Below, in pieces: positions 47,835-64,000 of a stretch of DNA of 64,000 bases (positions are counted from its first letter, which is position 1; every line of letters starts with the position of its first letter). The position numbers and the translations under genes were made by a program. Origin of the DNA: Steroidobacteraceae bacterium (lineage in GTDB: Bacteria; Pseudomonadota; Gammaproteobacteria; Steroidobacterales; Steroidobacteraceae); contig DATFCZ010000123.1 in the NCBI GenBank assembly GCA_035252605.1, forward strand, positions 6,632 through 70,631, given 5' to 3'. A model generated the notes under the pieces. That model saw only the letters and a program-made list of their open reading frames with translations. It did no database searches and was not told the origin of the DNA.

Positions 47835-48957
47835 GCGCTCGATCGAGATCGACCCACAGGTCCTCGACGGCCTCGATACCCACGCTCAGCCGCAGCAGCG
47901 TCGGCGGCAGGTGCTGCTGTCCGGGAATACCGGCCCGCCGCTCGATGGTGGACTCCACGCCGCCCAGACTGGTCGCATGTTGGATGAGCTGCAGGCCTGC
48001 GCAGACCGCGTCGGCGGCGCGGGCATCGCCGCGCACGTCGAACGAGATGATGGTGCCGAAGCCCTCGAGCTGGCGTCGCGCGGCCTGGTGGGTCGGGTGG
48101 CTCGCCAGCCCCGGATATCGGGTCAGGGTGACGTTCGGATGAGAGGCGAGGCGCTCGGCCAATGTCGTGGCGTTGCGCTGTGCCCGCTCGAGCCGCAGGG
48201 AGAGCGTGCGCGCGCCGCGAACGGCGAGAAACACCTCGAGAGTGCCGGGTGTCGCACCCGCGAGCTCGCGCGCCTGCCGCACGGCCGCGAGCAGCTTCGC
48301 GTCGCGCACGGTGACCGCGCCTCCCAGGAGGTCCGAGTGTCCGCCGATGAATTTGGTCACCGATTGCACGGCGACATCGGCTCCCAGCGCCAGCGGTCGC
48401 TGATTGAGCGGGGTGGCGAAGGTGTTGTCCACCGCCAGGATGGCACCTGACTTTCGCCGCGAGGCACAGATGACATCGAGGTCGGCCACGCTCAGCAACG
48501 GGTTCGAGGGCGACTCGAGCCAGACGAGGTCGGCGAGGCCGCACATTTCGATCCAACCGGAGGTGTCGGTCACGCCGATGCGGTGGACCTTCCAACGGCC
48601 GCGGCTTTGGCCGGCTTCGGCGAGGCCGACGACGCCCTGGTAGCAGTCATCCGGCAGAGCGATGACCGAGCCCGTTGGGAGTTGCTCGAAAACCGCGGCG
48701 ACCGCTGCCATGCCGGAGGCGAAGGCGACCGAAGCGCCACCTTCGAGGCCGCCGATGATCCGCTCGAGCGCTTCCCAGCCGGGCGTGGCGTCATCGCGGG
48801 AGTAGGCGCGGCCCTCGCCCCGGACGAAGTTCGAGGCCGGCCAGGGTGGCACGTTGAGCGGTGAGCCGGGGCGCCGGTCCCGCCCTGCCGAGACGAGCCA
48901 TGATTCGACCGAAACCGACTCGGCCGGAAGGTGCACGTTCGGATCTTTCGGTTGCAT
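47824..48957 (-). CDS. Cys/Met-metabolism PLP-dependent enzyme (cystathionine gamma-synthase/beta-lyase family)
   Basis: PLP-lysine context SVTKFIGGHSD. 377 aa. Confidence 0.8.
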   Translation of the reverse strand: MQPKDPNVHLPAESVSVESWLVSAGRDRRPGSPLNVPPWPASNFVRGEGRAYSRDDATPGWEALERIIGGLEGGASVAFASGMAAVAAVFEQLPTGSVIALPDDCYQGVVGLAEAGQSRGRWKVHRIGVTDTSGWIEMCGLADLVWLESPSNPLLSVADLDVICASRRKSGAILAVDNTFATPLNQRPLALGADVAVQSVTKFIGGHSDLLGGAVTVRDAKLLAAVRQARELAGATPGTLEVFLAVRGARTLSLRLERAQRNATTLAERLASHPNVTLTRYPGLASHPTHQAARRQLEGFGTIISFDVRGDARAADAVCAGLQLIQHATSLGGVESTIERRAGIPGQQHLPPTLLRLSVGIEAVEDLWVDLDRALRA

Positions 48958-49023
48958 CGGTCGAGTTTAGCCGATGAAGCCAGACCGCGCCTTACCTAGG
49001 CCGGGGCAACGTCCGCCCCCGCC

Positions 49024-50187
49024 TCAATAGCATTTTCCGCGCGCGGACACGGGCCAGACCACCTCGACTGTGCCGTCGCGCACGCCGACATACCAGTCGT
49101 GGAGATTGCAGGTCGGGTCGCAATGTCCCGGAACGAGCTTCAGCTTTTCATTGATGCGAAGAACGCCGCGCTTATCCTCGATCACGCCGTGCTCATCCGA
49201 GGCGCTGATGTACTTCACGTCGTCGCGGCCATAGACGACCGGAAGGCCGCTATCGAGCGAGTGCGCCTTGAGGCCTGCGTCGCAGACCGCCTGATCGGGC
49301 TTGGCACGGCTCATCACCGAGGTCAGGATGAAGAGCGCGTTCTCCCATTCACCACGGTCGATGCGGTTCCCGTCCTTGTCCTTGATGCGCCCGTAGTCCG
49401 CATCCATGAAGGCGTAACTGCCGCACTGCAGCTCGTTATAGACGCCGGAACTCGACTCGAAGTAATAGGAGCCCGTGCCGCCCCCGGAGACGAGCTCCGG
49501 TTTCAGCCCGACCGCCTGCAAAGCATCGACAACCGCCTTGACCAGGATGACGGCGTCGTCGAGCTTGGCCTTGCGCTCCTCGTAGCTCTCCAGGTGCTGC
49601 ATGGCGCCCTGATAAGCCTGCACACCGCTGAATCTCAGTGCCGTCGCCGCATCGATGGCTGTCGCAATCTCGGTTGCCGCGCTGACGCTCCTGACCCCGC
49701 AGCGGCCCGCGCCGCAGTCGATCTCGACCAGGCACTCCAGCGTCGTGTCGTGCCGTCGTGCGGCGGCAGAGAGTTCCGCCACGTTCGCCAGGTCATCGAC
49801 GCAGACGATGATTCGCGCGCCGTGTTTCGGCAGATGGGCGAGGCGCTCGATCTTGACCGGATCGCGCACCTCGTTGGACACGAGGATGTCCTTGATGCCG
49901 CCTCGGGCAAAGACCTCGGCCTCGGAAACCTTCTGACAGCAAACGCCAACGGCACCGCCCAGGAGCTCCTGCAGCTTCTGAACGTCGACCGACTTGTGCA
50001 TCTTGCCGTGACTGCGGTGGCGCATGCCGTGCCGCTTCGCATACTCGCCCATCTTCCTGATGTTGCGCTCCAGTGCATCGAGATCGAGGATCAGGCAGGG
50101 TGTTTGGATATCCGCCTCGTCCATGCCGGGCAGAGCGGGGATGTCGTAGCCGACCACGTGGCCGGCCAGATTCGTGTCGGCACTCAT
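49024..50187 (-). CDS. DSD1-family PLP enzyme (D-threonine aldolase / D-serine dehydratase-like; Ala-racemase N-domain)
   Basis: TPCLILDLDALERNI and HGKMHKS (PLP Lys region), with a C-terminal D-serine-dehydratase-like beta domain (GHCDPTCNL). Start uncertain (50187 or 50229). Confidence 0.7.
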   Translation of the reverse strand: MSADTNLAGHVVGYDIPALPGMDEADIQTPCLILDLDALERNIRKMGEYAKRHGMRHRSHGKMHKSVDVQKLQELLGGAVGVCCQKVSEAEVFARGGIKDILVSNEVRDPVKIERLAHLPKHGARIIVCVDDLANVAELSAAARRHDTTLECLVEIDCGAGRCGVRSVSAATEIATAIDAATALRFSGVQAYQGAMQHLESYEERKAKLDDAVILVKAVVDALQAVGLKPELVSGGGTGSYYFESSSGVYNELQCGSYAFMDADYGRIKDKDGNRIDRGEWENALFILTSVMSRAKPDQAVCDAGLKAHSLDSGLPVVYGRDDVKYISASDEHGVIEDKRGVLRINEKLKLVPGHCDPTCNLHDWYVGVRDGTVEVVWPVSARGKCY

Positions 50188-50277
50188 TCTCTTCGCCGCG
50201 GAACTCCGCGCCCACCGATGCGCAAACAATGGCCGCGCCTTGCGATCGGGTCGCCGTCCCTGCCATTGCCGCGCCGC

Positions 50278-51831
50278 TCATTCACAACCATGCTCCCGCC
50301 TGAAGGCCAGGTCTTCGTAGTCGTCGCTGAAATCGGCGTCGGGATCGACCTTGGCCATGCGCAGCGCCTCGCCAGCCTGCTGGGGAAAAAGCAGCCACGC
50401 CTCGGAGTTGCCGCTTCCCCAGTGCACCAGATAGTGCTCTCCGACGCGCATGACTTGTCCGGCCAGGCTGGGCGATTTCTGCGAGGCGAAAAACACGGCA
50501 TCCCCCCGAGCACAGATCCGCGCCTCGCCGAACCACGGATCGCGCCACACGCCGAGTTGATCCTTCAGATCCCTGGACGTCGCGGGCGTGCGCGATGAGG
50601 TATCGGGAACGCGCGAGATGCGCCGCTGTTGCTCCTCGCGAGCCAGTTCGGCCGCGTAGCTGGCCACACTGCGGGCCTTCTGCGGGGCGGTAAAACGCTT
50701 GGTCAGCACCTCGTTGAGCACGGTGCGGGCATCGTCGGCATCGCCATCGATGAGGAAGACATAGCCGCTCTTGCGGTAGGGCAGCAGCGTCACGGCCGAG
50801 TACATGCCCGACAGCGTTCCGGTGTGCGACATCGTGATCCGCCCATCCACATCGTCAATGCGCCAACCATAACCATAGCTGTAAAGGAGCGTGCCGTCCC
50901 AGGCCCGACGGCGCGCGGATATCGGCATGGGCGTGTAGCCGGTCCACTCCCGCTGCCGCTGTTCCTGCGATAACCAGGCTAGTTGCTTCGGCGTCGGCGC
51001 CAGCCAATTCATGGCCCAGAGCAGCATGTCGTTCAGGCTGCAACGCACGCCCCCCGCGGCGTCCATGGTAGCAGCATGCACGATGGGCCCGCTGGCAGGC
51101 ACTTCGACGTACCGGCCGTCGCGCAGTATGTGCGGCCGTGCCACGTTACCTACCTCGTCGCGGTTCCAGGTGCCGATCTGGCAGCGGCTCATGCCGAGCG
51201 GCTGGAACACTTCCCGGCGCATGAGCGTCGGATACGGCGCGGCGCCGGCCGCGGCTGCGACCAGACCGGCAACGATGTAGAGCGTGTTGTCGTAGGCGTA
51301 GCCCGCGCGAAAGCTGTATGCCGGCTTCAGGTAGCGCAGGCCCTGCACCACGTCCTCGGGCGTAAAATGATTCGGCTCCGGCCACAGCATCAAATCGCCT
51401 GCGCCTTCGGGCAGGCCGCTGTGATGCACCAGCAAATCACCGACCTGCATGTTCGCCGTGACCCACGGGTCGTACATCCGGAACGATGGCAGGTACTTCG
51501 TGACCGGGTCGTCCCAATGCAGCTTGCCTTCCTGCACGAGTCGCGCCAGCAGCGTCGCCGTCATGGCCTTGCTGTTGGAAGCAATCTTGAAGAGCGTGTC
51601 GGCGTTGATCGGCTTACCGGATTCCAGGTCACCCATTGCGCGCGTGTAGACCACCTTACCGTGGTCGATGACACCGACAGCAATGCCGGGCAGGTGGTAT
51701 TGCGCCACTACCGATTTGACCAGGCGCTCGTAGCCGGATCGAGAGCCGGACCGCGGCGCGGCAGCCCGCGCGGCCGTTGCGCACACGATCAGCGCCAATG
51801 AGATCACCAGGGGTCGGGCGAGCCGCTTCAT
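50278..51831 (-). CDS. Exported serine hydrolase of the beta-lactamase/PBP (class C-like) family with C-terminal lipocalin-like domain
   Basis: Signal peptide MKRLARPLVISLALIVCATAARA and SxxK motif ASNSK. ATGA overlap with the lysA stop. Confidence 0.8.
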   Translation of the reverse strand: MKRLARPLVISLALIVCATAARAAAPRSGSRSGYERLVKSVVAQYHLPGIAVGVIDHGKVVYTRAMGDLESGKPINADTLFKIASNSKAMTATLLARLVQEGKLHWDDPVTKYLPSFRMYDPWVTANMQVGDLLVHHSGLPEGAGDLMLWPEPNHFTPEDVVQGLRYLKPAYSFRAGYAYDNTLYIVAGLVAAAAGAAPYPTLMRREVFQPLGMSRCQIGTWNRDEVGNVARPHILRDGRYVEVPASGPIVHAATMDAAGGVRCSLNDMLLWAMNWLAPTPKQLAWLSQEQRQREWTGYTPMPISARRRAWDGTLLYSYGYGWRIDDVDGRITMSHTGTLSGMYSAVTLLPYRKSGYVFLIDGDADDARTVLNEVLTKRFTAPQKARSVASYAAELAREEQQRRISRVPDTSSRTPATSRDLKDQLGVWRDPWFGEARICARGDAVFFASQKSPSLAGQVMRVGEHYLVHWGSGNSEAWLLFPQQAGEALRMAKVDPDADFSDDYEDLAFRREHGCE

Positions 51832-53111
51832 GTCCTATTCCAGCTCCGCGCCGGCTGCTCGCCGGCGATCATCTCCTCGAAGCTCTGGCGCCGCCGCACA
51901 ACCGCGTAACGGCCCCGGTCGAGCAGCGCTTCGGCGGCCAAGGGTCGCGAGTTGTAGTTCGATGCCATCGCCGCGCCGTAGGCCCCCGTCGTCCTGATCA
52001 TCAGCAGATCGCCCGGCTCGCACGGCGGCAAGCGGCGATCAACGGCAAAGGTGTCGCTGCTCTCGCACACCGGTCCGACGACGTCGTAGATCTGCGGCGG
52101 GTGCTGGCGGGGCGAGATCGGCACGATCTCGTGCCAGGCATCATAGAGGCTCGGGCGCAGAAGCTCGGTCATACCCGCGTCCACCACCAGGAATTGCCTC
52201 TGCCGGCCCTGCTTGATGCGCAGCACGCGCGTCAGCAGCACTCCGGCCTCGGCGACGAGCCAGCGGCCCGGTTCGAGCAGGATGCGGCCACCGAAGCCGC
52301 TGAGCGTGCTCCGAATCACCTGCGCGTAGTCCTCTACGGAGGCGGGCCGGTCGCGGTCCTCGCGATAACACACGCCGAGTCCGCCACCGACATCGATGCT
52401 GTTGATCTCATGTCCGCCTGAGGCCAGCTCGCGCCCGAAGGCGGCCAGGCGTTGCAATGCCAGCCGGATCGGATCCAGGCAAAGCATTTGCGAGCCGATG
52501 TGCACGTGCAGACCATCCAGGCGCACATGCGTCAGCCGCGCGCGATCCGCAAACCATTCGCGCGCCTCGTCAATGCCGACGCCGAACTTGTTTTCCAACC
52601 TGCCGGTGGAGATCTTGACGTGCGTGAGGGCATCGACGTCGGGATTGACGCGTACCGAGGCGCGCGCGATCACATTCCGTGCCGCCGCCAGAACCTGCAA
52701 CGAGCTCAGCTCGTCCTTTGATTCCACGTTGAAGCGTGCGATGCCGGCAGTCAGCGCATCGCCGATCTCCTCGGCGCTCTTGGCGACGCCGGAAAACACG
52801 ATGCGGTCTGCGGGAATGCCCGCACGCAGACTTCGCTGCAACTCGCCGGCCGACACGATGTCGGCGCCCAGTCCGGCGTCCGCCATCATCTGCAAAACCG
52901 CGAGGTTGGCATTGGCCTTGACCGCATAGCAAATGAGCGTATCGAGTCCTTGCACGGCCGTCTGCAAGGCACGGATGCGCTGCCGGATGGCGGAGGCGGA
53001 ATAGACATGGAGCGGCGTGCCCACTCGCTGCGCCAACACTCGCAGATCCACGCCGTCCAGACGCGCCGCGTCAGCGCACACGGCTTCGGTGGGGGTGATC
53101 GTGGTGGTCAT
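51828..53111 (-). CDS. lysA: Diaminopimelate decarboxylase
   Basis: PLP-lysine context CYAVKAN, plus DVGGGLG, CESSD and GAYGAAMASNYN. Confidence 0.88.
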   Translation of the reverse strand: MTTTITPTEAVCADAARLDGVDLRVLAQRVGTPLHVYSASAIRQRIRALQTAVQGLDTLICYAVKANANLAVLQMMADAGLGADIVSAGELQRSLRAGIPADRIVFSGVAKSAEEIGDALTAGIARFNVESKDELSSLQVLAAARNVIARASVRVNPDVDALTHVKISTGRLENKFGVGIDEAREWFADRARLTHVRLDGLHVHIGSQMLCLDPIRLALQRLAAFGRELASGGHEINSIDVGGGLGVCYREDRDRPASVEDYAQVIRSTLSGFGGRILLEPGRWLVAEAGVLLTRVLRIKQGRQRQFLVVDAGMTELLRPSLYDAWHEIVPISPRQHPPQIYDVVGPVCESSDTFAVDRRLPPCEPGDLLMIRTTGAYGAAMASNYNSRPLAAEALLDRGRYAVVRRRQSFEEMIAGEQPARSWNRT

Positions 53112-53167
53112 CGCTCGCCGCCGCGCGGTTTGTTCTCCATTCAGCTGACGGGCACGGCAGCGGCGAA

Positions 53168-54946
53168 TCAGTAACCCGCCGCGAGACCGGCCGGACGACG
53201 CCGATCGTTGGCGCCTTCGAGCATGCCGGTCTTCGGATTGATCAGGATGGCTTCATCGGCACCCATGGCGTGGACCGTCGTGAATTGGTAGCCCATTTTT
53301 TCGAGCTTCCGTAGCGACTCGGACGAGAGCATCCCAGCCTCGATCCACACCTCCTGCGGATACCACTGCTGGTGCATGCGCGGGGCGTTCACGGCCTGTT
53401 GCACGTTCATGCCGTAATCCACCACGTTGAGGATACTCTGCAGCGTGGTCGAGATGATGCTGGCGTCGCCGGGGCTGCCGGTCAGCAGAAAGGGCTCGCT
53501 GCCGCGCATGACGATGGTCGGCGTCATCGAGCTCAGGGGACGCTTCCCCGGCTCGATCCGGTTGACCTCGCCCTGCACCAGCCCGGCCGCATTCGCCACG
53601 CCGGGCTTGGAGGTGAAATCATCCATCTCGTCGTTGAGGAAGAAACCGGTGTCGCCGGCGATCTGCCGGATGCCGAACAGGAAATTCAGGGTGTAGGTTA
53701 CCGCAACCACGTTGCCGTAGCTGTCGGCCACCGAATAGTGAGTGGTGTGATTGCCTTCGCGGGCGCCGAGATCGCCCCTGATCGCCGATGAGGCTGTGGC
53801 TTTGTCCGGCAGGATCGTGGATCGCAGCTTTTCCGCGTGAGCGGGTGAAAGCAGCTCATCGATCGGGTTATGGACGAACGCCGGGTCGCCGAGGTAGGTG
53901 TTGCGATCGGCGAAGGCGCGGCGCTCGGCCTCGGCCAGATAGCGCACGGCGTCGACCGAACCGTAGCCCCACTCGGCAAACGGGTAGGGCCCGATGATCT
54001 GCAGGATCTCGCATAGCGTCGTGCCGCCTGAGCTGGGCGGCGGCGCCGAGACAATGGTGTATCCGCGGTAGCTGCATTGGACCGGCTTTTCCCATTGGAC
54101 GGTGTAATCGGCAAAATCCGCCATCGAAAGGATGCCCCCGTTGGCGCGGCTCGCCTTGACCAGGGCGCGGGCGATACGGCCCCGGTAGAACTCGTCGGTG
54201 CCGCCAGCGGCAATCCGCTCGAGCGTTCGTGCCAGTTGCCTCTGAACCAGACGCTGGCCGACCCGGTAAGGCTTGCCCCGGTTCAGGAAAATGGCTGCTA
54301 CGTTGGAATGTCTGGCGAAGTCCCCGACGCTGTCGTTGAGGATGTCGACGTCGCCTGGCCGGAGCAGGTAGCCGTCCCGCGCCAGCTTGATGGCCGGCGC
54401 CATCACCTCCTTCAACGGCATCGTGCCGTATTTCGCGAGCGCGGTATTCAGGCCCATGACGGTGCCCGGTACGCCCACTCCCAGGTAGGAATCGGTGCTG
54501 CGGCTCGGCTCTACGTGGCCGTCGGCATCCTGGAACATGCTCGCCGTGGCATTGAGCGGTGCTCTCTCGCGGAAATTGAGGAACAGGTTCCGGCCATTCC
54601 TGAGATGAATCGTCATGAACCCGCCGCCGCCGATGTTGCCGCAGCACGGATGCACGACCGCCTCCGCGTAGCCCACCGCCACGGCAGCATCGATGGCGTT
54701 GCCGCCTCGCTTGAGGAGGTCCACTCCGACCAGGGTCGCCAGATGCTGAGCGCTGACCACCATGGCGTGCCGCGCGATCACCGGTCTGGCCGTGAGCAGC
54801 GCCTCGCGAGTGGCGGCAGGCGCGTGGATGATTGTGGAAAGCGTTCGCACGCGAGCGCTGTCCCTCGCGCCGGCCACGGTGCTGCATGCAGCGATTGCGA
54901 GCGCCAGCGCCGCCTGCGACCCACGAACCGCGACGGCGCCGCTCAT
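53168..54946 (-). CDS. ggt: Gamma-glutamyltransferase (exported, probable lipoprotein)
   Basis: Start trimmed to ATG 54946 (ATGA overlap with the upstream stop). Lipobox AIAACS, autoprocessing/nucleophile TTHYSV, and SSGG / GSPGG motifs. Confidence 0.88.
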   Translation of the reverse strand: MSGAVAVRGSQAALALAIAACSTVAGARDSARVRTLSTIIHAPAATREALLTARPVIARHAMVVSAQHLATLVGVDLLKRGGNAIDAAVAVGYAEAVVHPCCGNIGGGGFMTIHLRNGRNLFLNFRERAPLNATASMFQDADGHVEPSRSTDSYLGVGVPGTVMGLNTALAKYGTMPLKEVMAPAIKLARDGYLLRPGDVDILNDSVGDFARHSNVAAIFLNRGKPYRVGQRLVQRQLARTLERIAAGGTDEFYRGRIARALVKASRANGGILSMADFADYTVQWEKPVQCSYRGYTIVSAPPPSSGGTTLCEILQIIGPYPFAEWGYGSVDAVRYLAEAERRAFADRNTYLGDPAFVHNPIDELLSPAHAEKLRSTILPDKATASSAIRGDLGAREGNHTTHYSVADSYGNVVAVTYTLNFLFGIRQIAGDTGFFLNDEMDDFTSKPGVANAAGLVQGEVNRIEPGKRPLSSMTPTIVMRGSEPFLLTGSPGDASIISTTLQSILNVVDYGMNVQQAVNAPRMHQQWYPQEVWIEAGMLSSESLRKLEKMGYQFTTVHAMGADEAILINPKTGMLEGANDRRRPAGLAAGY

Positions 54947-55932
54947 TGCCCGCCCCAGAATCCCGGTGACGGCGGCAGCAGCAGGCCATCCTGAAAAGTC
55001 ACGCCATTCGGGTGGTCGCTCTGCAGCCAGAGCGGCCCATCCAGATCGACGAAGTCCGCTTCGCGCGCGATCTCCAACGCCGGCGCGATGGCGAGCGACG
55101 AACAAACCATGCAGCCAACCATGACACCGAATCCACACGCTCTTGCATCACGCAGCAGGCGCCAGGCCTCGGTCAGGCCTCCGGTCTTGTCGAGCTTGAT
55201 GTTGACGGCCTGGTAACGATCGAGGAGCGAGGGCAGGTTGGAGGTGGTGTGGCAGGCCTCATCTGCGCAGAGAGGAATTCGGCTCGAGAACTGCAGCAGG
55301 GCGTCGTCGGCATCGGCCGGAAGCGGTTGTTCCAGCAGGCTCACGGAGGCGCGTTCAAGCGCCGGCGCGACCTGACGGAGAATGTCGATCGTCCAGCTCT
55401 CATTGGGATCGACGATGAGTCTGGCCGCGGGCGCGGCTTGCCGCACGGCTTCGATCCGCCCAACCGGGTCGTCGGCCCCGACCTTGATCTTGATCAGCCC
55501 GGCCCCCGCGATTCGGGCCGCCGCCTTCCCCATCTCGTGCGGCGTTTCGATGCCGAGTGTCAGTGCAGTGACGATCGGGGCCGGCTGTGGCCGGGCCAAG
55601 CGTTTCCACACCGGCACGTGACTGAGCCGCGATTCAAGGTCCCACAACGCCGTGTCCACTGCATTGCGCGCCGCCCCGGCGGGAAGGCGCGCCTGCAGCT
55701 CGTCTCTGCCCATGCCGGCGCACAGGAGGTCGCGCAGCATCTCGATTTGATCCATCACGGATGCCACCGATTCACCGTAGCGGCCGTAGGGAACGCATTC
55801 GCCGCGCCCGATGCAATCTGCCTGGTCAAGCTCGACGGTCACCACGTCCGCCGCGACCTTCACACCCCGCGAGATGCGAAAGGGCGTTCGCAACGGCAAC
55901 GTGCGGTGCCGGACGGTCAGCGCGCGCAGCAC
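54943..55932 (-). CDS. Enolase-superfamily dipeptide epimerase-like enzyme (L-Ala-D/L-Glu epimerase / N-acetyl-D-Glu racemase DgcA-like)
   Basis: 329 aa. Metal and acid-base motifs KIKVG, DPNESW, LEQP, ADE and DLDGP. Confidence 0.75.
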   Translation of the reverse strand: MLRALTVRHRTLPLRTPFRISRGVKVAADVVTVELDQADCIGRGECVPYGRYGESVASVMDQIEMLRDLLCAGMGRDELQARLPAGAARNAVDTALWDLESRLSHVPVWKRLARPQPAPIVTALTLGIETPHEMGKAAARIAGAGLIKIKVGADDPVGRIEAVRQAAPAARLIVDPNESWTIDILRQVAPALERASVSLLEQPLPADADDALLQFSSRIPLCADEACHTTSNLPSLLDRYQAVNIKLDKTGGLTEAWRLLRDARACGFGVMVGCMVCSSLAIAPALEIAREADFVDLDGPLWLQSDHPNGVTFQDGLLLPPSPGFWGGQ

Positions 55933-56960
55933 GAAAGCAGATTGTCCACGATGGCTTCGACTCCCATGGTGACCGGGTCCTCACAGGGCAGATCCAGTCG
56001 TTCGCCGATCTCTCGGCAAGCCGCGCGCGCCTCCGGGGCGGATACATTCGAGGTGTTGAGCGCGACGCCGACTGCCTTGACCCCGGGGTTGGTCAAGCGG
56101 GCGGCGCTGAGGTTGGCTTCCAGGCAACGCGCGAGATCCGGGAGCGGATAGCCGGGGAGGCCGCGCATGTGCCGTCGCGTGAGCTCGTGGCACAACACCA
56201 GCGCGTCTGGTTGGGAACCGTGGAGCAAGCCCAGCGACACGCCGGCGTACGACGGATGGAACAACGATCCCTGGCCTTCGATGAGATCCCATCCGTCGTC
56301 TTCACGGGCCGGCGAGATCATCTCGACCGCTCCTGAGATGAAATCGGCAATCACCGCATCCACGGGTATGCCGCCGCCCGCGATGAAGATGCCGGTCTGG
56401 CCGGTGGCGCGGAAATCGGCCCTGAGGCCGCGCTGGCGCATGCTGCGCTCGATCGCGAGCGTGGTGTACATCTTGCCGACCGAACAGTCGGTGCCCACCG
56501 TCAACAGGCGCCGCCCGGGGCGCCTTTGACCAGTGCCGACCGGGATCCTTTGAGTGCATTCGCGTGCATCGAACAGCGCGCAGCCATTGCGCCTGGCGGC
56601 AGCCACGATGTCTGCATTCTCACGCAGCTTTTCATGAAGACCGGCAACCACGTTGAGCTTGGCATCGAGCGCCGTGATGATGTCGGCTACGATCTCCGGC
56701 GGCATCACACCGCCGGCGTTTGCAGTGCCGATCACCATGGTATCTGCGCCTGCGGCTTTGGCCTGCGCCGGTTCCATGTCCGGCAAGCCGAGCGTCAGGC
56801 GGCAGTCGCAGTCGCGGTACTGGCCGATACACCACTCAGGCCGCCAGTAGGCCAGTCCCCTGGCCGTCTTGATCGCAAGATCGTCCGCTGCTCGACCCAG
56901 ATACAAGAGAAAAGGCGGGCCCCAATGGACGTGGGCGGCTGCATCGCCGTGCTTGAACAT
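55917..56960 (-). CDS. DUF1611 family protein (DgcN-like putative D-glutamate N-acetyltransferase)
   Basis: PPFLLYLGRAADDLAIKTARGLAYWRP and TGQRRPGRRLLTVGTDCSVGKM are typical of DUF1611. The ATG at 56960 is preferred because GGAG lies 9 nt upstream; the track start is 57059. Confidence 0.65.
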   Translation of the reverse strand: MFKHGDAAAHVHWGPPFLLYLGRAADDLAIKTARGLAYWRPEWCIGQYRDCDCRLTLGLPDMEPAQAKAAGADTMVIGTANAGGVMPPEIVADIITALDAKLNVVAGLHEKLRENADIVAAARRNGCALFDARECTQRIPVGTGQRRPGRRLLTVGTDCSVGKMYTTLAIERSMRQRGLRADFRATGQTGIFIAGGGIPVDAVIADFISGAVEMISPAREDDGWDLIEGQGSLFHPSYAGVSLGLLHGSQPDALVLCHELTRRHMRGLPGYPLPDLARCLEANLSAARLTNPGVKAVGVALNTSNVSAPEARAACREIGERLDLPCEDPVTMGVEAIVDNLLSCCAR

Positions 56961-57138
56961 GAATCCGCGCTCCAACTGAATCCGTTCAGCTCGAAAAGGC
57001 CCGGGCAGCATAACCATTGGCGGGCATCGGCCACCAATGAAAAGACGCGTACATGGCATAACTCAGGGTTGTGGGGCGACGGCGACCTGTGCTCAACTTC
57101 AGCATATCACCGCTGCACAAATACCCGACGGGGGGGAT

Positions 57139-58041
57139 ATGCGGGTCCGGTACATCGAATTGTTTCACGCCATTCTGACCTCCGGCAGCATCACCGGAGC
57201 GGCAAAGCTGCTTGACATCTCGCAACCTGCCGCGAGCAAGGCGCTGCAGCACGCTGAAGATCAGCTCGGCTTCGCGCTGTTCAGTCGTGTACGCGGACGC
57301 GTGCAGCCGACACAACAGGCGCAGTTATTGCGCCACCGGATCGAGAATATCATTCAGGAGTTGCAAGAGCTCGAGCGCCTGACCGCAAACATGAGTCAGC
57401 CGGGAAATTGCCCGTTGCGCGTGACGTGCACGCCGACACTGGCGCAGGCATTGCTTCCCTCCGCTACGGTATTGTTGCGCAAGACCTTCCCCGACGTGAC
57501 CGTGGAGCTGTCCACCGAGCATTCGGCGGCGATGTGCGAGTCCCTGACGCTCCGGGAAACGGACCTCGGCCTCACGTTGCAGGATACCGGTCATCAGACT
57601 TTGCACCAAAGGGTGCTCTGCCGCGGTCAGGTCATGGTGATCGCTCCACCGGGGTGGTGGCCGCCGGCCGAATTGCTGCAACCTTTGCCGCTCAGCGCGT
57701 TGGCCAGTCAGTCCCTGATCGGCATCACCGTGCGCGACGCCCTGGGCAGCATGCTTCAAAGCCATCTGGCGAAGATCGATCCCGCGCCGAGAACCGCGGT
57801 CGCGGTGCAGACCTATCAGTTGGCCCGTTCACTCGTCGCCAAGGGCGAAGGGATAGCGCTGGTTGATCCCTTCACGGCGCGCTGTGGCGATGCGAACAGC
57901 GTGCAGGTGCGCCCGCTGAAGCCGTTCCTGGAAGTCGTATTATATGCGATGCATCGACCCGACAGCCCGTTGAATCGGGTGCAGAAGCGCTTTCTCCATG
58001 TCGTTCGACAACTGGCGCAGGGAATGCTGACCAAACGCTAG
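57139..58041 (+). CDS. LysR-family transcriptional regulator (divergent from the DUF1611 operon)
   Basis: Start trimmed to ATG 57139. wHTH IELFHAILTSGSITGAAKLLDISQPAASKALQHAE plus a substrate-binding domain. Confidence 0.85.
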   Translation: MRVRYIELFHAILTSGSITGAAKLLDISQPAASKALQHAEDQLGFALFSRVRGRVQPTQQAQLLRHRIENIIQELQELERLTANMSQPGNCPLRVTCTPTLAQALLPSATVLLRKTFPDVTVELSTEHSAAMCESLTLRETDLGLTLQDTGHQTLHQRVLCRGQVMVIAPPGWWPPAELLQPLPLSALASQSLIGITVRDALGSMLQSHLAKIDPAPRTAVAVQTYQLARSLVAKGEGIALVDPFTARCGDANSVQVRPLKPFLEVVLYAMHRPDSPLNRVQKRFLHVVRQLAQGMLTKR

Positions 58042-58092
58042 CGGTAGCGGCGGGCTGTCCGCAGAGCCCGCTCGCGGAACCTACGGGGCGCC

Positions 58093-59733
58093 TCATTGCA
58101 CGTCGACGCCCGCAGCGCGCAAGCGCTGGCGCAAGCGGTCGAGCTTGTCACCAAAGAGCGCGCTGCGCGCGGTATCGCTGCGCAGGGGTTGTCGTACCAG
58201 CGCGGCACTGGGCAGGCTCTGCACCGTCCGCGTCGTCTTGTGAAACTCCAGGCACGCAGGAGCAAACGCAAGGTTGCAGAACTCGAGCAGGCGACGGATC
58301 ACCGCCTCCGGCTCCCTCACCAGCGTTTCGTATTGCAGATCAAACACCTGATTCGGATACTTCTCGAGCCAGAAGCGTGTCAGGCGGAGGAAGTCACCGC
58401 AGTAATCGGCCATCTCATCGAGATCGCAGGCGAAGCCGCTGGCCTCGCTGAAGCACTGGCGGAAGCAGCCCAAGCAGGTCTCCACCGGATCGCGCCGAAC
58501 GACGACCACGCGTGCGGCCGGCAACATCGCCAATGCCGCGCCGACCAGGTACCACGTCACCAGGCTCTTGTCGGTAAAGCGCGGCCTGGCCCGCCGCCAG
58601 CGCGCGGTTCGCGCAAGATACTCGCGGCCGAGGCGCTGCCAATCCTCCGGCGTCGCCTCGGGTACCCACAGCGGAAATGCCGAATTGCGTCGCGCGCTTT
58701 CCGCATCGATGACCTGCTTCATATCCTTGATCTCGTTCGCACCCTCGACCTCCGGATGCGAAGCCAGGATCTGCTCGACCAGCGTCGAGCCGGAGCGAGG
58801 GATACTGACGATCAGGATGGCTTCGCTCCCCAGTCGGGCATCGACCGGAGTCGGCGCTCCGTCCGCAAATACCCGCAGGATCGCCTCGACACGTTTGTGC
58901 TCGCCCGCCGCGTCCCAGCGCACGCGCCGCCGCCGCGAGGCATTGGCAGCCCGGAACACTTCGAAGGCCTGCGCGTAGTCGCCCTGGCTCTCCAGCGCCT
59001 TCGCAAAGGTGAAACCGAGCAGTTCGCGATCACGGTCCGGCAGGTCTTCGCGCCTCAAGGCGCGCTGCAGAGATGCCCGATCGGCGGCGTCAAAGTGGAC
59101 CACGTTGAGATTCGACAACCCGAACCATCCTTCGGCGTGGGCGGGATCGCGTCGCAGGACTTCGCGAAAGGCGGCCACTGCGGCACTGGTCTCGCCCAGG
59201 TTGGCCTGGGTGCGGGCCAGCGAGAGGCGGGCGGATAGGTGTGCGGGGTCGAGCTCGAGCGCGCGTCGCAACGCATCGACGGCCGCGCTCGTATGCGCCT
59301 GGCGCCCGAGTGCCTCGCCGAGATTGAACCAGGTCGACGCCGCAGCCGGCTCGAGCTCACAGGCGCGTCGAAAGTGCGTCAGGGCTTCATCGGCCTCGCC
59401 CTGCTCGAACAGGGATATGCCGAGTCCCATGTGCAGATCGGAATCCTCGGGCCCGCCCGCAAGAGCCCGCCGGAAGCAGTCGATCGCCTTCAAGTGATTG
59501 CCGAGGCGCTGGGCCACCATACCGAGCAGCCGCATGGCGTCCGGCTCTTCCGGAGCCAATGTCAGCACGCTGTTGAGCGATTGTTCCGCGGCTTCGAACT
59601 GGCGCTGCTCCCACTCCCGGCGTGCCCGCCCCAGCAGGCGGGCGGCTACCGATGAGAGCGGCCGCCGGGAGCCGCCGGGCGCTGCCCCTGGCTCGGTGGG
59701 GGACGTCATGTCATCACGGGCAGGCGGCGTCAC
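58093..59733 (-). CDS. TPR-repeat-containing sulfotransferase family protein
   Basis: The N-terminal 250 aa are TPR repeats. The C-terminal sulfotransferase domain has the 5'-PSB loop SIPRSGSTL. Confidence 0.75.
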   Translation of the reverse strand: MTPPARDDMTSPTEPGAAPGGSRRPLSSVAARLLGRARREWEQRQFEAAEQSLNSVLTLAPEEPDAMRLLGMVAQRLGNHLKAIDCFRRALAGGPEDSDLHMGLGISLFEQGEADEALTHFRRACELEPAAASTWFNLGEALGRQAHTSAAVDALRRALELDPAHLSARLSLARTQANLGETSAAVAAFREVLRRDPAHAEGWFGLSNLNVVHFDAADRASLQRALRREDLPDRDRELLGFTFAKALESQGDYAQAFEVFRAANASRRRRVRWDAAGEHKRVEAILRVFADGAPTPVDARLGSEAILIVSIPRSGSTLVEQILASHPEVEGANEIKDMKQVIDAESARRNSAFPLWVPEATPEDWQRLGREYLARTARWRRARPRFTDKSLVTWYLVGAALAMLPAARVVVVRRDPVETCLGCFRQCFSEASGFACDLDEMADYCGDFLRLTRFWLEKYPNQVFDLQYETLVREPEAVIRRLLEFCNLAFAPACLEFHKTTRTVQSLPSAALVRQPLRSDTARSALFGDKLDRLRQRLRAAGVDVQ

Positions 59734-59814: not shown

Positions 59815-62800
59815 TCAAAAGTCATAGGCAACAGAGAGTCGGACGCTGCGAGGTGGCGTGTAGTTCTCCACATTGCCGTACTCGGAATTGGGACTGGTGG
59901 TGGTCCCAAAGAAGTCATTGATGAACAGCGGTGTCTGATGGTTGAACACGTTGAACACCGCGACGTTGAAGTCGAGCCCTCGGTCAACCCACTTGAGCGT
60001 CGGTTTGTAATCCAAGCTGAGGTCCAGGCGTGTGGTCCATGGCAAGCGTCCCAGCGAGCCCGGAGGAACCGGCACGCCGGCGCACCAGTAGTAGGTATGG
60101 GAACCGTGCAGAGCGATCTGGTCCGGCCCGTACCCGCCGCGGCACATCCGGGGGGTGCCGGAGGCGGCGTAGAGATTGGCGCCCACCGTCAGTTCCCGCG
60201 TGATCCCGTAAGCTCCGAAGATCTTGAACTGGTGCCTGCGGTCGTTCGGTTGAACGCCATACGAATACTGCATCCTCTCGGGGAAGTCCCACGCGGTCGT
60301 GATCGATTCATACGACCCGCTCTGCTGCGAAAAGGTGCTGACAGGCCCTTCCGTGTTGCCCCACGTCTTGGAGAACACGTAATCGAATTTCGCCGCCCAC
60401 CTGCCGTTCCAGACGTGCGTCAGCGAAAGGTCCAGTGAGTAGTATTGGCGCAGTACCCCTCTCGGGAAGCCCTGGTCCGCCGGTGTGAAGTTGACCGGCA
60501 CGAGGCTTCCGTCGGGCGCCTTCATCAGAATATGCTGGGTCACGCCCGGGTTGACCAGGATGAGGCTCTGGGCCCACTGGCTGCAGGTATCCGGCGTCAT
60601 CCACGAATATCCCTGCGCCAGGCCCGCGGCACACTCCCTTTGCTCGTCGTCGTAGTCGTCGATGATGCGGTTCATCTTCTGGTACGTGCCCGTTGCCCCG
60701 GCCACCCACTTCTCGTCCAACATCTCGAACTCGTGCTGCAGGCCGAGCACGAAGTCGTCCGAATACTCGGCCTTGATGTTCTGGGAAGCCGATATCCTCG
60801 GATCCTTCGGCTGGCCGTATTCGCTGTCGATGGATACACCGGTCGACGGAAGCTGGTAAAGGGGCTTGAAGCCGATGGGTACGCCGGTTGCCGGATCGAT
60901 GCCCGTGTAGGTCCCATACAGGGAATAATTCACCACGGGCGCCGCGATCGAGAGGGCGGTGGTCAACGGAAGCGCCAGGTAATAGCGGCCGGCATTGCCG
61001 AATACCTTGAAGGTGGAGTCGCCCTTCACGTCCCAGCTGAAGCCGAAACGCGGAGCCCACTGGGGCTTGGTCAGCTTGATGTAGGGCACGCCCGACCCGT
61101 CGTAGTTGGTGAACTGGTCGTTCCGCAACCCCAGGGACAGCAGCAGGTTTTGAGTGACGTGCCAGTTATCCTCGATGTACTGCGCACGCTGCTCGACCTT
61201 CACCGATGCCGACGATCTGGAATAGGACTGCTGGACATAGTAGCAAGACCCGGCGAAGCATTGATCCGACGGGCCGACATAGGGCGCGATGCCGGGGGTA
61301 GTTCCGGTAAAAACCGGCTGACCAGGCGTGCTGGAGCCGTAGATCCAGGAATAGCCGGGTCCGGTGTTCTCGCTGCCGTCGTGCAAGTCCCATGAATTGA
61401 TATTATCGATGCCCACGGTGATGTCGTGAGCGCGCCACTTGTAATCGAGGCTCACGCGGTAAGACGTGACGTTGACATGGTGCAGGGGGTCGCTTTGCGT
61501 CGAGTTGGTGTTGGCGTTGACGATGCCGCCCGGCGGCGCGAATTGCGGATCTTGCAAGGACGCGCTCTCGATGTGAGGCAACGACGCATTGAACCCCGGG
61601 CCCTCGGGCTGCTCAAATAAATAGTCGCCGTGAGTCTTACCGAACATCGCGTCCAGGGTAAGCCGGTCGGTGAGGTAGGAGGTGAAGTTCGCCACCCCCA
61701 TCCTGAAGGTGGTCTTTGCCGTTTGACCGAAACCCGAGAAAGTCCCGAGGCTCGGTGGGTCGTAGTTGACATTGTAGATCGACTGCCACGTCTTGTTCGC
61801 GCTCTGGAGCCCGGTCAGGGTGAGCAGATTGTTGTCGTTGATGTTCCAATTTATCTTGGCGTAGTACTTGGGCGCATCCGTGCGGTCGTGGGCGATGACG
61901 GGATTTTCGAACGAGCCCGAGTTGCCGAGGGACAGGTCGTTGGTGGTTTGTCCCGTGTAGTCCTCTTCGGCGCCCAGGAAGAAAAACAACCGGTTCTTGA
62001 TGATCGGGCCGCTGACGTAGGCGTCGTAGATCGTCTCCTGGGAATCCTCGGGCGTGTTGTAGCTGTGCAGCAGACCTGGAGGATACCCCTTCGATGCCGC
62101 CAGCGGATTGGCGTAATAGGAATTCCTGAAGTGGGCCTGCAGGGAGGACGGCTGCACCAGCGCGCGCACGCCAAAGTGCCAGTCGTTGGTGCCGCTCTTG
62201 CCGATCTGGTTGATCACGCCGCCGACGGAGCGGCCATATTTTGCGCCGTAGCCACTGATGAGGGTCTGCTGCTCCTCTATGGCGCCATACGGCAGCTCGA
62301 GACCGCCCTGTGCGGTGAGCGCGTCGGTGACATTCATGCCGTCGATGTAGTAGGCATTCTCGGCCGTCGAGGCGCCGCCGAACACATTGATCGGGTTGCC
62401 CAGCGGACCGCTGGTCAGTTGGGGCGAGCCCATGTTGACACCCGGAGCCAGCGCCGCGATATCGGCGGCGTCACGCTGCAAGGGCAGGCGCTGCAGCTCC
62501 TGGGCCGTTACCGTGGTGACCTGATTGGTCGTGGACACGTCGATCGCGGGGATCGCCTTGGCGGAGATGACGATGGTGTTCAGGGCCGTCGTGGTCGAGG
62601 TGGCGGTCGCACTGGAAAAGACCACCGTTACTGCGCCCGCGGCAACGGGACTGACGCCCGTCTTGGACTGCACTACCTTGCCGTTCTGCAGCAGGGATAC
62701 GGTGTAGGTGCCGACGGGAACGGTGGTCGAGTATCTGCCGGAGGGGTCCACGTTGATGGTACGGTCGAAGCCCGAGCCACCGGTGATCCGGATGGTCTCG

Positions 62801-62985
62801 CCGGCAGCAACCGGAACCGTACCCTCGATCGTGCCGGTGACCGCCTGCCCCCAGGCGGTACCCGTTAGGCCCATCAGGGCCGAGCTGACCGCGAGCGCGA
62901 CCGCCTTGCGCTGCAGGGCGCTCTTGCGCTGCAAGGCGCTGTTGCGATGCAATCGACGCGAAGACGCTCTCTTCATGATACCCAC
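59815..62985 (-). CDS. TonB-dependent outer-membrane receptor, Oar-like (N-terminal carboxypeptidase-regulatory-like domain)
   Basis: 1056 aa. Signal peptide, CarboxypepD_reg-like segment (GTIEGTV...SGRYSTTVPVGTYTV), plug, long beta-barrel and C-terminal aromatic residue (...SVAYDF). Alternative start at 62976. Confidence 0.85.
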   Translation of the reverse strand: MGIMKRASSRRLHRNSALQRKSALQRKAVALAVSSALMGLTGTAWGQAVTGTIEGTVPVAAGETIRITGGSGFDRTINVDPSGRYSTTVPVGTYTVSLLQNGKVVQSKTGVSPVAAGAVTVVFSSATATSTTTALNTIVISAKAIPAIDVSTTNQVTTVTAQELQRLPLQRDAADIAALAPGVNMGSPQLTSGPLGNPINVFGGASTAENAYYIDGMNVTDALTAQGGLELPYGAIEEQQTLISGYGAKYGRSVGGVINQIGKSGTNDWHFGVRALVQPSSLQAHFRNSYYANPLAASKGYPPGLLHSYNTPEDSQETIYDAYVSGPIIKNRLFFFLGAEEDYTGQTTNDLSLGNSGSFENPVIAHDRTDAPKYYAKINWNINDNNLLTLTGLQSANKTWQSIYNVNYDPPSLGTFSGFGQTAKTTFRMGVANFTSYLTDRLTLDAMFGKTHGDYLFEQPEGPGFNASLPHIESASLQDPQFAPPGGIVNANTNSTQSDPLHHVNVTSYRVSLDYKWRAHDITVGIDNINSWDLHDGSENTGPGYSWIYGSSTPGQPVFTGTTPGIAPYVGPSDQCFAGSCYYVQQSYSRSSASVKVEQRAQYIEDNWHVTQNLLLSLGLRNDQFTNYDGSGVPYIKLTKPQWAPRFGFSWDVKGDSTFKVFGNAGRYYLALPLTTALSIAAPVVNYSLYGTYTGIDPATGVPIGFKPLYQLPSTGVSIDSEYGQPKDPRISASQNIKAEYSDDFVLGLQHEFEMLDEKWVAGATGTYQKMNRIIDDYDDEQRECAAGLAQGYSWMTPDTCSQWAQSLILVNPGVTQHILMKAPDGSLVPVNFTPADQGFPRGVLRQYYSLDLSLTHVWNGRWAAKFDYVFSKTWGNTEGPVSTFSQQSGSYESITTAWDFPERMQYSYGVQPNDRRHQFKIFGAYGITRELTVGANLYAASGTPRMCRGGYGPDQIALHGSHTYYWCAGVPVPPGSLGRLPWTTRLDLSLDYKPTLKWVDRGLDFNVAVFNVFNHQTPLFINDFFGTTTSPNSEYGNVENYTPPRSVRLSVAYDF
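62905..62958 (-). repeat. 18-nt tandem repeat (2 near-identical copies plus 1 degenerate) in the 5' end of the TonB-receptor ORF
   Basis: Plus strand: cttgcgctgcagggcgct / cttgcgctgcaaggcgct / gttgcgatgcaatcgacg, encoding SALQRK-SALQRK ahead of the signal-peptide hydrophobic core. Confidence 0.5.
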
Positions 62986-63321
62986 TCCCCGGTTGCTCGA
63001 TCGCGAGTGAGCGGCAGGTGCAGCCGCTGCTGTTTCTATCGCGTCGGCACTATAAGCGACCCATGGTCATGCGCGCCGCAGGCAAGGCCACCCGCGGCAG
63101 TGTGCCGAGGATACTCACCGCGCCGCGCAAACCACCAATGAAAAGACCGATATTCGGCATAGCTGCGGGTTATGGTCACGCGGTGCGCGGATGGCCGGCA
63201 GGCCCGCGGGAACCGCTGTCCGCGGCGCGATTCGGTGACTGGCCGCAAGCGCGCGCCGGCCTGGCTCGGCCGGCGCGAACCATCTCTACAGGTCAGCGGT
63301 GACCATGTACGATGCGCGGCC

Positions 63322-64000
63322 ATGACCGAATCCTCAGCAAGCGCGCCGCGCGAACTGCCGCGCAAACTCGGGCTCGTGACCGGCATGGCGGTCGTGGTCG
63401 GGGTGATCATTGGCAGCGGAATCTTTCGCGTTCCATCGCCGATCGCGGAGGCGGCCGGCAGCCTCACCGGGATCGCTCTGGTGTGGATCCTCGGAGGCAT
63501 CGTCGCGCTCTTTGGCGCGCTCTCGATCGCCGAGCTCGCAACGATGTATCCCGCCGCCGGCGGCCCATACGTGTATCTGCGCGAAGCGTACGGCCGCCCG
63601 CTTGCGTTCCTGTTCGGTTGGATGTGGCTGCTGACTACACCGATCTCGTGGGCCGCGCAAAGCCTGATGTTCGCGGAATACCTGGGCTACTTCGTGCCGA
63701 TTCGCCCGGTCGTGCAGCACGGGATCGCGGCGGTGCTCATCATCCTGGTCGCCGCCGCAAACTATCGTTCGGTGAAGCTCGGCGCCGCGATCCAGAACCT
63801 CTCGACCGGCGCAAAAATACTGGCCATCGTGGGCCTGTCCGCCGCGATCTTCGTCTTTGCGCCCCGCGGTCACGCGGATCCCCTCGGTGCAGAGCCAATG
63901 GGCGCGGCGAATTGGACCGGCATCGGCATCGGCCTGATCGCGGCGCTCTGGGCTTACGATGGTTGGGAAAATCTCACCACGTTGTCGGGTGAGGTAAAGG
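63322..64000 (+). CDS. APC-superfamily amino-acid permease, N-terminal part (3' end cut by window edge; absent from ORF track)
   Basis: Hand translation from ATG 63322: MTESSASAPRELPRKLGLVTGMAVVVGVIIGSGIFRVPSPIAEAAGSLTGIALVWILGGIVALFGALSIAELATMYPAAGGPYVYLREAYG... The frame is open to base 64000. GSGIF and multi-TM pattern are typical of APC permeases. Confidence 0.8.
   Translation, partial: MTESSASAPRELPRKLGLVTGMAVVVGVIIGSGIFRVPSPIAEAAGSLTGIALVWILGGIVALFGALSIAELATMYPAAGGPYVYLREAYGRPLAFLFGWMWLLTTPISWAAQSLMFAEYLGYFVPIRPVVQHGIAAVLIILVAAANYRSVKLGAAIQNLSTGAKILAIVGLSAAIFVFAPRGHADPLGAEPMGAANWTGIGIGLIAALWAYDGWENLTTLSGEVK

Follow-up and report, generated by a model that had tools for sequence, protein, structure and literature searches.

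A conserved gene island in a Steroidobacteraceae genome as a candidate locus for the catabolism of peptidoglycan stem peptides

What could a bacterium gain from a tightly packed string of genes that sets D-glutamate enzymes beside a diaminopimelate (DAP) decarboxylase, exported hydrolases and a pyridoxal phosphate (PLP) enzyme? We examined this question for contig DATFCZ010000123.1 of a Steroidobacteraceae soil bacterium (assembly GCA_035252605.1), of which a stretch of 64,000 nucleotides (nt), here called the window, was analysed. A first-pass annotation of the window, made from the letters alone, had read positions 49024-58041 as a LysR-controlled module for murein-peptide and D-amino-acid catabolism. 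Our results place these genes in a larger setting: the six-gene operon forms one arm of an island of approximately 25 kb that is itself conserved. We favour, with reasonable though far from full confidence, the reading that this island serves the uptake and catabolism of peptidoglycan stem peptides (L-Ala-gamma-D-Glu-mDAP-D-Ala-D-Ala, where mDAP is meso-DAP) from dead bacteria. The operon itself would most probably be the cytoplasm-facing arm of an island for D-amino-acid-containing peptides, with stem peptides as the likeliest substrates. All seven genes described earlier, including the divergent LysR gene, were found at their positions; together with a conserved block in the spacer they are as follows.

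49024..50187, minus strand: BhcC-type 3-hydroxy-D-aspartate aldolase (PLP enzyme of fold type III), predicted cytoplasmic, last operon gene (NF045642)
50278..51831, minus strand: exported S12 (beta-lactamase-fold, 'CubicO') serine hydrolase with a C-terminal beta-barrel domain (Pfam Beta-lactamase)
51828..53111, minus strand: LysA2, second monofunctional DAP decarboxylase (TIGR01048)
53168..54946, minus strand: exported gamma-glutamyltransferase (GGT), second genome copy, optional member (TIGR00066)
54943..55932, minus strand: DgcA, enolase-superfamily N-acetyl-D-Glu racemase, near YcjG (NF042940)
55917..56963, minus strand: DgcN, DUF1611-family D-glutamate N-acetyltransferase, first operon gene (NF041892, Pfam DUF1611_N and DUF1611)
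57007..57074, no strand: operator-like conserved block in the lysR/dgcN spacer (invariant columns in 14 loci)
57139..58041, plus strand: LysR-type regulator, divergent from dgcN (Pfam HTH_1 and LysR_substrate)

The six minus-strand genes, dgcN, dgcA, ggt, lysA, the S12 hydrolase gene and the PLP enzyme gene, are co-oriented and closely packed. Direct reading of the junctions revealed a 16-nt overlap of dgcN and dgcA (GTGCTGCGCGCGCTGA), an ATGA overlap of dgcA and ggt, a gap of 56 nt between ggt and lysA, and a second ATGA overlap in which the start of the S12 gene lies over the stop of lysA. The overlaps and the divergent LysR gene thus agree with the earlier description. One spacing had to be revised, that of 48 nt before the PLP gene: this gene most likely starts at ATG 50187, because both the BhcC model and PDB 6qkb align from that residue, and the gap to the hydrolase gene becomes 90 nt. 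For dgcN the most likely start is ATG 56963, preceded at 9 nt by a GGAG, and both elements are kept in 14 relatives. The regulator most likely starts at 57139, leaving a divergent region of 175 bp, and the ggt start at 54946 gives a product of 592 amino acids (aa). A scan of 47500-58200 found no sigma-70-like promoter. The terminator scan gave about as many matches as shuffled sequence and placed none between the genes on the coding strand. By inspection, no hydrophobic export leader was found on DgcN, DgcA, LysA or BhcC, and N-terminal export signals were seen on the S12 hydrolase and GGT, the two products to which signal peptides had been ascribed before.

The arrangement is genuine. Four soil or rhizosphere metagenomes from four studies yielded contigs that match the stretch at >99% identity; coverage is of even depth, no joints are supported, and the stretch is therefore not an assembly chimera. 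All 24 sequencing runs listed for 49024-57200 are DNA metagenomes, and a search of RNA runs with 50278-53111 listed none. As the same gene string recurs in dozens of species-level genomes, the arrangement is also far beyond chance.

Identities were assigned with curated NCBIfam, TIGR and PRK models that carry cut-offs, and with Pfam. DgcN scored 516.9 bits against the NF041892 equivalog (cut-off 480), covering positions 1-326 of 326, and DgcA scored 445.7 bits against NF042940 (cut-off 400); the earlier likening of the DUF1611 protein to DgcN is thereby borne out. In DgcA, K148-x-K150, D175, E201, D224, K246 and D296-x-D298, among them all catalytic residues of the enolase superfamily, do not vary across 65 DgcN-linked homologues. 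The route from D-Glu to N-acetyl-L-Glu through these enzymes (EC 2.3.1.312 and EC 5.1.1.25; PMC11747546) has already been described (PMC12363236, PMC10845958, PMC11747546), and PMC12363236, in citing it, credits the pathway to Yu et al. 2023, ISME J 17:537. No deacylase or amidohydrolase gene that could act as an N-acetyl-L-Glu deacetylase was seen in the operon or the examined flanks, a genome-wide search not having been made; N-acetyl-L-Glu could instead enter arginine synthesis. DUF1611/DgcN-like paralogues are numerous in Steroidobacteraceae, with up to six in one genome, itself estimated to carry 5% contamination. Several Rhodanobacter and Dyella genomes have dgcN without an adjoining dgcA (loci L014, L015, L018 to L020, L026, L063, L170 and L266); its neighbours there are ggt, the receptor pair described below, or S12-bhcC, and DgcN may have a role that needs no racemase nearby.

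The product of the cluster lysA, LysA2, reached 463.5 bits against the TIGR01048 equivalog (cut-off 297.9). Aligned with E. coli LysA (34% identity), it retains the EPGR, CESxD and SNYNSRP motifs. A housekeeping bifunctional aspartokinase/DAP decarboxylase (AK/DAPDC) is encoded on another contig, C21 (PRK08961, 1218 bits, cut-off 802). Such bifunctional enzymes, recognisable by a match of 34-40% identity to the cluster LysA within a frame of approximately 870 aa, occur in 119 of 121 species of the family, against only 4 of 121 genomes for the cluster type (at least 66% identity), in all four of which lysA adjoins an S12 orthologue. The cluster lysA is therefore an accessory second copy, and the earlier concern that it might simply be the sole housekeeping gene falls away. 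LysA has been described as a DAP-inducible key enzyme of exogenous DAP catabolism (PMC9602339).

The S12 serine hydrolase, encoded directly after lysA, is a probable D-stereospecific peptidase by analogy with its structural relatives. It scored 212 bits against Pfam Beta-lactamase, carries by inspection an N-terminal export signal (MKRLARPLVISLALIVCATAARA/A), and its catalytic motifs S85-x-x-K88, Y180-x-N182 and H336-T-G338 are invariant in 27 homologues. The AlphaFold2 (AF2) model (pLDDT 87) includes a C-terminal beta-barrel domain, and its best fold matches were Pab87, the IS11 esterase, the Lip3 DL-peptidase, the D-Asn-specific ClbP, an FmtA-like protein, the D-aminopeptidase of O. anthropi (Ochrobactrum) and the R61 DD-peptidase. 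S12 enzymes of this architecture cut D-L peptide bonds, and S12 DL-peptidases exist (PMC12903863). Support for hydrolysis of bonds beside D-residues comes only from these distant structural relatives and from the gene context (M15, S58, M19 and lysA). Membership in class C beta-lactamases was not indicated: the best such model gave 77.5 bits at a cut-off of 415, and all beta-lactamase models scored far below their cut-offs. The family forms a clade of its own, with >120 clusters at a minimum of 69% identity in soil metagenomes. In one predicted metagenomic protein of 746 aa (P0114), an S12 hydrolase (74% identity) and an M15 D-Ala-D-Ala dipeptidase domain form a single chain, either as a true fusion or because overlapping genes were read through.

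GGT scored 552 bits against the TIGR00066 equivalog (cut-off 358) and has the autoprocessing Thr nucleophile motif NHTTHYS. Its hydrophobic leader is kept in orthologues; the idea of a lipoprotein is weakened, since close relatives do not keep the Cys of the lipobox-like IAAC. A paralogue, 46% identical, lies on contig C10. Bacterial GGTs accept gamma-D-glutamyl donors and hydrolyse gamma-D-Glu-L-Trp (PMC8062742).

The last operon gene had been taken for a DSD1-type enzyme of D-Ser, D-Thr or another D-amino acid. That it encodes a PLP enzyme was correct, and its identity can be narrowed to a BhcC-type D-3-hydroxyaspartate aldolase: it scored 745 bits against NF045642 (cut-off 690) and 685 bits against PDB 6qkb over residues 1-387 of 387, and is 81% identical to BhcC of the canonical bhcR-bhcABCD operon of Paracoccus lutimaris. 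In at least 15 relatives, bhcC is likewise the terminal cluster gene. A tblastn search with the Paracoccus proteins found no BhcA, BhcB, BhcD or BhcR orthologues anywhere in the genome (94% complete), the best matches being 25-40% identical paralogues on other contigs; a part in the beta-hydroxyaspartate cycle is therefore ruled out here. Among the 80 closest BhcC loci, bhcABD were present at 62, and copies with 81% identity or more were found mostly in the present cluster. These comparisons suggest that bhcC was recruited into a D-peptide operon, where it is the last gene. BhcC orthologues found in neither setting (loci L169 and L190) gave no clue to the role, their neighbours being a catalase and an acetamidase-like gene. 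On the same strand, 66 nt downstream of bhcC and with no terminator detected between, lies a cystathionine-gamma-lyase-like PLP gene (47824-48957). We rejected it as an operon member, as it is 1.4-4 kb off or absent in relatives and its place here reflects synteny, not the unit; its co-transcription with bhcC here may be incidental.

The regulator gave its best curated match with PRK11013 (E. coli LysR) at 141 bits, below the membership cut-off of 288, with the next best model at 89 bits, and it is 30% identical to E. coli LysR over 284 aa. In relatives with this cluster type it is kept divergent from dgcN at 61-92% identity. E. coli LysR is encoded divergently from lysA, and DAP is its co-inducer; by analogy, DAP as inducer of the present operon can be taken as a lead only. 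The spacer holds a 68-bp block (57007-57074) with long invariant runs in 14 loci of Steroidobacteraceae and Rhodanobacteraceae, while the remainder of the spacer diverges. Read on the minus strand the block is CCACAACCC..AGTTATGCC..TCTTTTCATTGGTGGC-N9-GCCAATGGTTATGCT, and it contains the dyad CATTGG-N12-CCAATG.

To see how far the unit is kept, loci around relatives of DgcN, the S12 hydrolase, BhcC and the sulfotransferase encoded next to the regulator gene were fetched and the cluster proteins mapped onto them. Steroidobacteraceae and Rhodanobacteraceae/Lysobacterales together supplied at least 26 species-level genomes with the order LysR / dgcN-dgcA-[ggt]-lysA-S12-[S12b]-[bhcC], optional genes being in brackets, so that the genes stay together across two orders, as the first-pass annotation had needed them to do; lysA adjoins the S12 gene in approximately 38 genomes. 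GGT is an optional member. Relatives also insert further genes. Rhodanobacter-type loci have an exported S58/DmpA-type aminopeptidase as first operon gene (Pfam, 399 bits), many relatives place an M15 VanX/DdpX-like D-Ala-D-Ala dipeptidase between two S12 genes (NF033115, 176 bits), and in Dyella an M19 dipeptidase is part of the operon (Pfam, 327 bits). All the inserted genes are predicted enzymes of D-amino-acid peptide metabolism, and the D-Ala-D-Ala dipeptidase and the DAP decarboxylase are specific for murein residues. The proposed link to murein peptides gains support from the VanX-like, S58/DmpA, M19 and second S12 genes in these operons. A minimal variant occurs in the cultured Dyella terrae (CP089414), with LysR / dgcN-S12-bhcC followed by the sulfotransferase, the receptor and M61. 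Another cultured soil isolate with a variant is Lysobacter niastensis DSM 18481.

Distribution and divergence point to an accessory element. An orthologue of the S12 hydrolase (at least 53% identity) was present in 7 of 121 genomes of the family; within the genus itself, three of five genomes lacked it. The island appears to have moved between Steroidobacterales and Xanthomonadales, since the cluster proteins are 70-83% identical between Steroidobacteraceae and Rhodanobacteraceae vs. 50-52% for the housekeeping AK/DAPDC.

Of the unit proposed at first, the gene set holds and the extent does not, as it also includes an arm with a TonB-dependent receptor and an arm with a permease and an aminopeptidase. 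Three further features of the window belong to it.

58093..59733, minus strand: TPR-sulfotransferase that travels with the island (Pfam Sulfotransfer_3 and TPR repeats)
59815..62985, minus strand: TonB-dependent outer-membrane receptor with an Oar-like barrel (Pfam Plug and OMP_b-brl_4)
63172..64000, plus strand: APC-family amino-acid permease, 5' part, opening the other arm (Pfam matches on L244, which continues the contig)

Sulfotransferase orthologues with at least 71% identity numbered 19, all in this island type and all from Steroidobacteraceae or Rhodanobacteraceae, and 13 of the 19 have dgcN within 10 kb. The gene lies directly downstream of this receptor type in all orthologue loci with sufficient upstream sequence; the receptor orthologues of relatives, directly upstream of it, share 64-92% identity. 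Dyella has a related receptor (30% identity) immediately before lysA-M19-S12-M15-S12, without dgcNA; a cultured strain with this layout is Dyella jiangningensis SBZ 3-12 (CP007444). The other arm, divergent from the receptor and sulfotransferase genes, runs past the window end: after the permease come an M61 aminopeptidase and a second S12 hydrolase, then a transglutaminase-like gene and, carrying DUF3471, a third S12 gene. This arm is kept at 65-91% identity in 12 relatives, and the whole layout is also conserved in 12. The receptor-sulfotransferase pair stays with dgcN or S12 through at least four different arrangements. The second S12 on the window's contig is an orthologue (77% identity) of the second S12 of relatives, and in 12 loci and the window this gene follows either the first S12 or M61 in the other arm, never both. 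Because it occupies one position or the other, the arms of the island are functionally tied.

Two side observations concern these arms. At window position 62905, in the leader of the receptor, contigs from two independent soil metagenomes (X2 and X6) lack an 18-nt unit that two others have; the number of copies of a tandem SALQRK-coding repeat therefore differs between populations. The transglutaminase-like (papain-fold) gene of approximately 480 aa (L244 6401-7810, minus strand, contig C123) lies between two S12 genes on the opposite strand and is conserved at 72-88% identity in six relatives; its product could be a further isopeptide or gamma-glutamyl hydrolase.

From these parts a route for stem peptides can be proposed. 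The TonB-dependent receptor would bring the peptides across the outer membrane, and exported peptidases would dismantle them completely in the periplasm, the S12 hydrolases cutting bonds beside D-residues and the M61 aminopeptidase (an S58/DmpA-type enzyme in relatives) removing the N-terminal L-Ala. Only in relatives would a VanX-like dipeptidase act on D-Ala-D-Ala, along with an M19 dipeptidase. Where GGT is present, it would hydrolyse the gamma-D-Glu-mDAP bond once the amino group of Glu is free. Free amino acids would then be imported by the APC permease. In the cytoplasm, DgcN would acetylate D-Glu and DgcA would racemise N-acetyl-D-Glu to N-acetyl-L-Glu, LysA2 would decarboxylate meso-DAP to L-Lys, and the BhcC-type aldolase would split a D-beta-hydroxy amino acid into glycine and an aldehyde or glyoxylate. 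The LysR-type regulator would control the operon through the conserved 68-bp block, with DAP, D-Glu or N-acetyl-D-Glu as possible inducer.

A number of observations weigh against this route. Each product had been matched at first to one bond or residue of the stem peptide, a scheme that BhcC breaks: its substrate class corresponds to no stem-peptide residue, yet bhcC is among the most faithfully linked genes. The model has no step for the TPR-sulfotransferase, a cytoplasmic-looking protein linked to an outer-membrane importer, and no amidase, glycosidase or muramidase that would free the peptides from glycan was seen in the island. The window's genome gave no match to the M15 D-Ala-D-Ala dipeptidase at E < 1e-8 and only a weak partial one to M19, so that both steps would be supplied, if at all, by other enzymes. 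Of approximately 28 full clusters, ggt is present in about 21 and absent from seven, and the minimal variant of Dyella terrae has no dgcA, lysA or ggt nearby. DgcN exceeds its cut-off modestly, many family paralogues score 430-479 bits, and with most of them in that range the cut-off of 480 slices a continuum. DgcA nearly reaches the cut-off of the YcjG (L-Ala-D/L-Glu epimerase) model PRK15129 (330 vs. 343 bits) and retains the D-x-D motif, a mark of dipeptide epimerases. The nearest solved relatives of the S12 hydrolase share 18-26% identity only, at which specificity is unreadable from sequence.

Four other explanations have to be set against the stem-peptide route. The island might degrade other D-amino-acid-rich peptides, such as non-ribosomal lipopeptides or siderophores of soil bacteria with D-Glu/D-Gln, D-allo-Thr, D-Ser or beta-hydroxy-Asp, the S12 hydrolase opening the peptides and BhcC with DgcN/DgcA disposing of D-beta-hydroxy and D-acidic residues. 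We consider this unlikely, yet it stays alive because BhcC, the minimal Dyella variant, the sulfotransferase and the missing amidase or muramidase do not fit the stem-peptide route. Lipopeptides and siderophores contain beta-hydroxy-Asp, and the substrate class of BhcC, D-3-hydroxyaspartate, suits them better than murein; TonB-dependent receptors are common in siderophore uptake, and the Dyella terrae variant keeps dgcN-S12-bhcC without lysA or ggt. Lip3, a DL-peptidase that acts on lipopeptides, is among the best structural matches of the S12 hydrolase (PMC12903863). What speaks for murein instead is the canonical DAP decarboxylase (463 bits), an enzyme for a murein residue whose gene is translationally coupled to the S12 gene, together with the VanX-like D-Ala-D-Ala dipeptidase in the operon of many relatives; neither enzyme would serve on lipopeptides. 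Recycling or remodelling of the cell's own periplasmic peptidoglycan turnover products, in place of foreign material, is improbable. The enzyme set would be equally active on self-derived peptides and the peptidases are predicted to be periplasmic, but the patchy accessory spread (cluster-type lysA in 4/121 and the S12 orthologue in 7/121 genomes, missing in 3/5 of the same genus), the linkage to an outer-membrane importer, the signs of lateral transfer and the catabolic products (Lys and N-acetyl-L-Glu, not re-ligated precursors) all oppose it.

We judge it highly improbable that the S12 hydrolase and the VanX-like dipeptidase serve to protect the cell from beta-lactams, glycopeptides or D-peptide antibiotics, as a defence or resistance module in which the metabolic genes are bystanders. 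The hydrolase does have the beta-lactamase fold and weak matches to class C models, and VanX-like and DD-peptidase-like enzymes occur in glycopeptide resistance; still, every beta-lactamase model is far below its cut-off (e.g., 77 vs. 415), no VanH/VanA-type genes were seen in the annotated loci, and the translational coupling to lysA and co-conservation with dgcNA favour metabolism. Chance juxtaposition of the known dgcN-dgcA pair with unrelated housekeeping genes deserves the least credence. In the fetched loci of Alphaproteobacteria, dgcN-dgcA indeed stands alone with a different regulator. Here, however, start codons lie over the stop codons of preceding genes, the genome carries the genes as second copies, and at least 26 species from two orders have the same gene order; with this test run, chance was not supported.

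With stem peptides kept as the preferred substrates, a bolder reading can be offered, which we hold only tentatively. The island may be a locus dedicated to the utilisation of peptidoglycan peptides, doing for peptides what polysaccharide utilisation loci do for glycans, with a TonB-dependent importer, a set of D-specific peptidases in the periplasm, a permease for amino acids and stereo-converting enzymes in the cytoplasm. It would have spread laterally in soil Gammaproteobacteria. Two of its proteins would then act in ways not described before, BhcC being drawn from its cycle into D-amino-acid catabolism and the TPR-sulfotransferase being tied to the receptor. The component families and the dgcNA pathway are already known, and the combined island would be the new part. 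Our literature searches returned no description of a TonB-linked island with a second lysA, a recruited BhcC and S12/M15/S58/M19/M61 peptidases, in keeping with the earlier view that the combined set is undescribed; a Caulobacter recycling paper found in these searches concerns the sugar moiety, not the peptide part. Bacterial cell-wall residues and D-amino acids are widely held to be a slowly degraded organic pool in soils. The same has been described for the ocean (PMC12363236, PMC9602339). Genes for consumption of the peptide part have so far been known piecemeal, dgcNA for D-Glu and lysA for DAP. If our reading is correct, one conserved island joins uptake, hydrolysis and stereo-conversion, and it would be a plausible candidate genomic marker for consumers of bacterial necromass peptides, testable in cultured Dyella, Lysobacter and Rhodanobacter strains. 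It would also give an example of enzyme recruitment, with BhcC outside its cycle, and an exported S12 peptidase family, likely D-specific, that could be useful as biocatalysts.

Comparison with known systems shows what is shared and what is particular to the island. As in the DgcN-DgcA pathway, a DUF1611 acetyltransferase gene adjoins that of an enolase-family racemase, with both products over their equivalog cut-offs; here, though, the pair forms genes 1-2 of an operon that also encodes LysA2, GGT, exported S12 hydrolases and BhcC and belongs to a TonB-receptor island, and the operon shows no deacetylase gene. With the D-stereospecific S12 peptidases (ClbP, O. anthropi D-aminopeptidase, alkaline D-peptidase, the 'CubicO' protein Pab87 and Lip3) the hydrolase shares the fold, the S-x-x-K, Y-x-N and H-x-G motifs, the extra C-terminal beta-barrel domain and export, yet at 18-26% identity it stands in a clade of its own. 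As in the LysA-dependent DAP catabolism of marine Pseudomonadota (PMC9602339), a DAP decarboxylase would turn cell-wall-derived DAP into lysine. A single housekeeping lysA does so in those bacteria, unlike here, where a dedicated second lysA overlaps an exported-peptidase gene and the housekeeping enzyme is a bifunctional fusion at another locus.

The beta-hydroxyaspartate cycle of Paracoccus (PDB 6qkb; NCBIfam NF045640-45644) has in common with the island a true BhcC orthologue (81%, 745 bits). It differs in the bhcA, bhcB, bhcD and bhcR genes, all absent from the present genome. Murein tripeptide recycling in E. coli involves MpaA, the L-Ala-D/L-Glu epimerase YcjG, PepD, LdcA and Mpl. Of these, Mpl is treated in PMC3060825. 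The peptide concerned is the same, and DgcA is a near relative of YcjG. However, the island has no MpaA, LdcA, Mpl, AmpG or Opp/MppA homologues, and in place of a core recycling function it would be an accessory one, in which hydrolysis is apparently periplasmic and complete and is followed by the import of amino acids.

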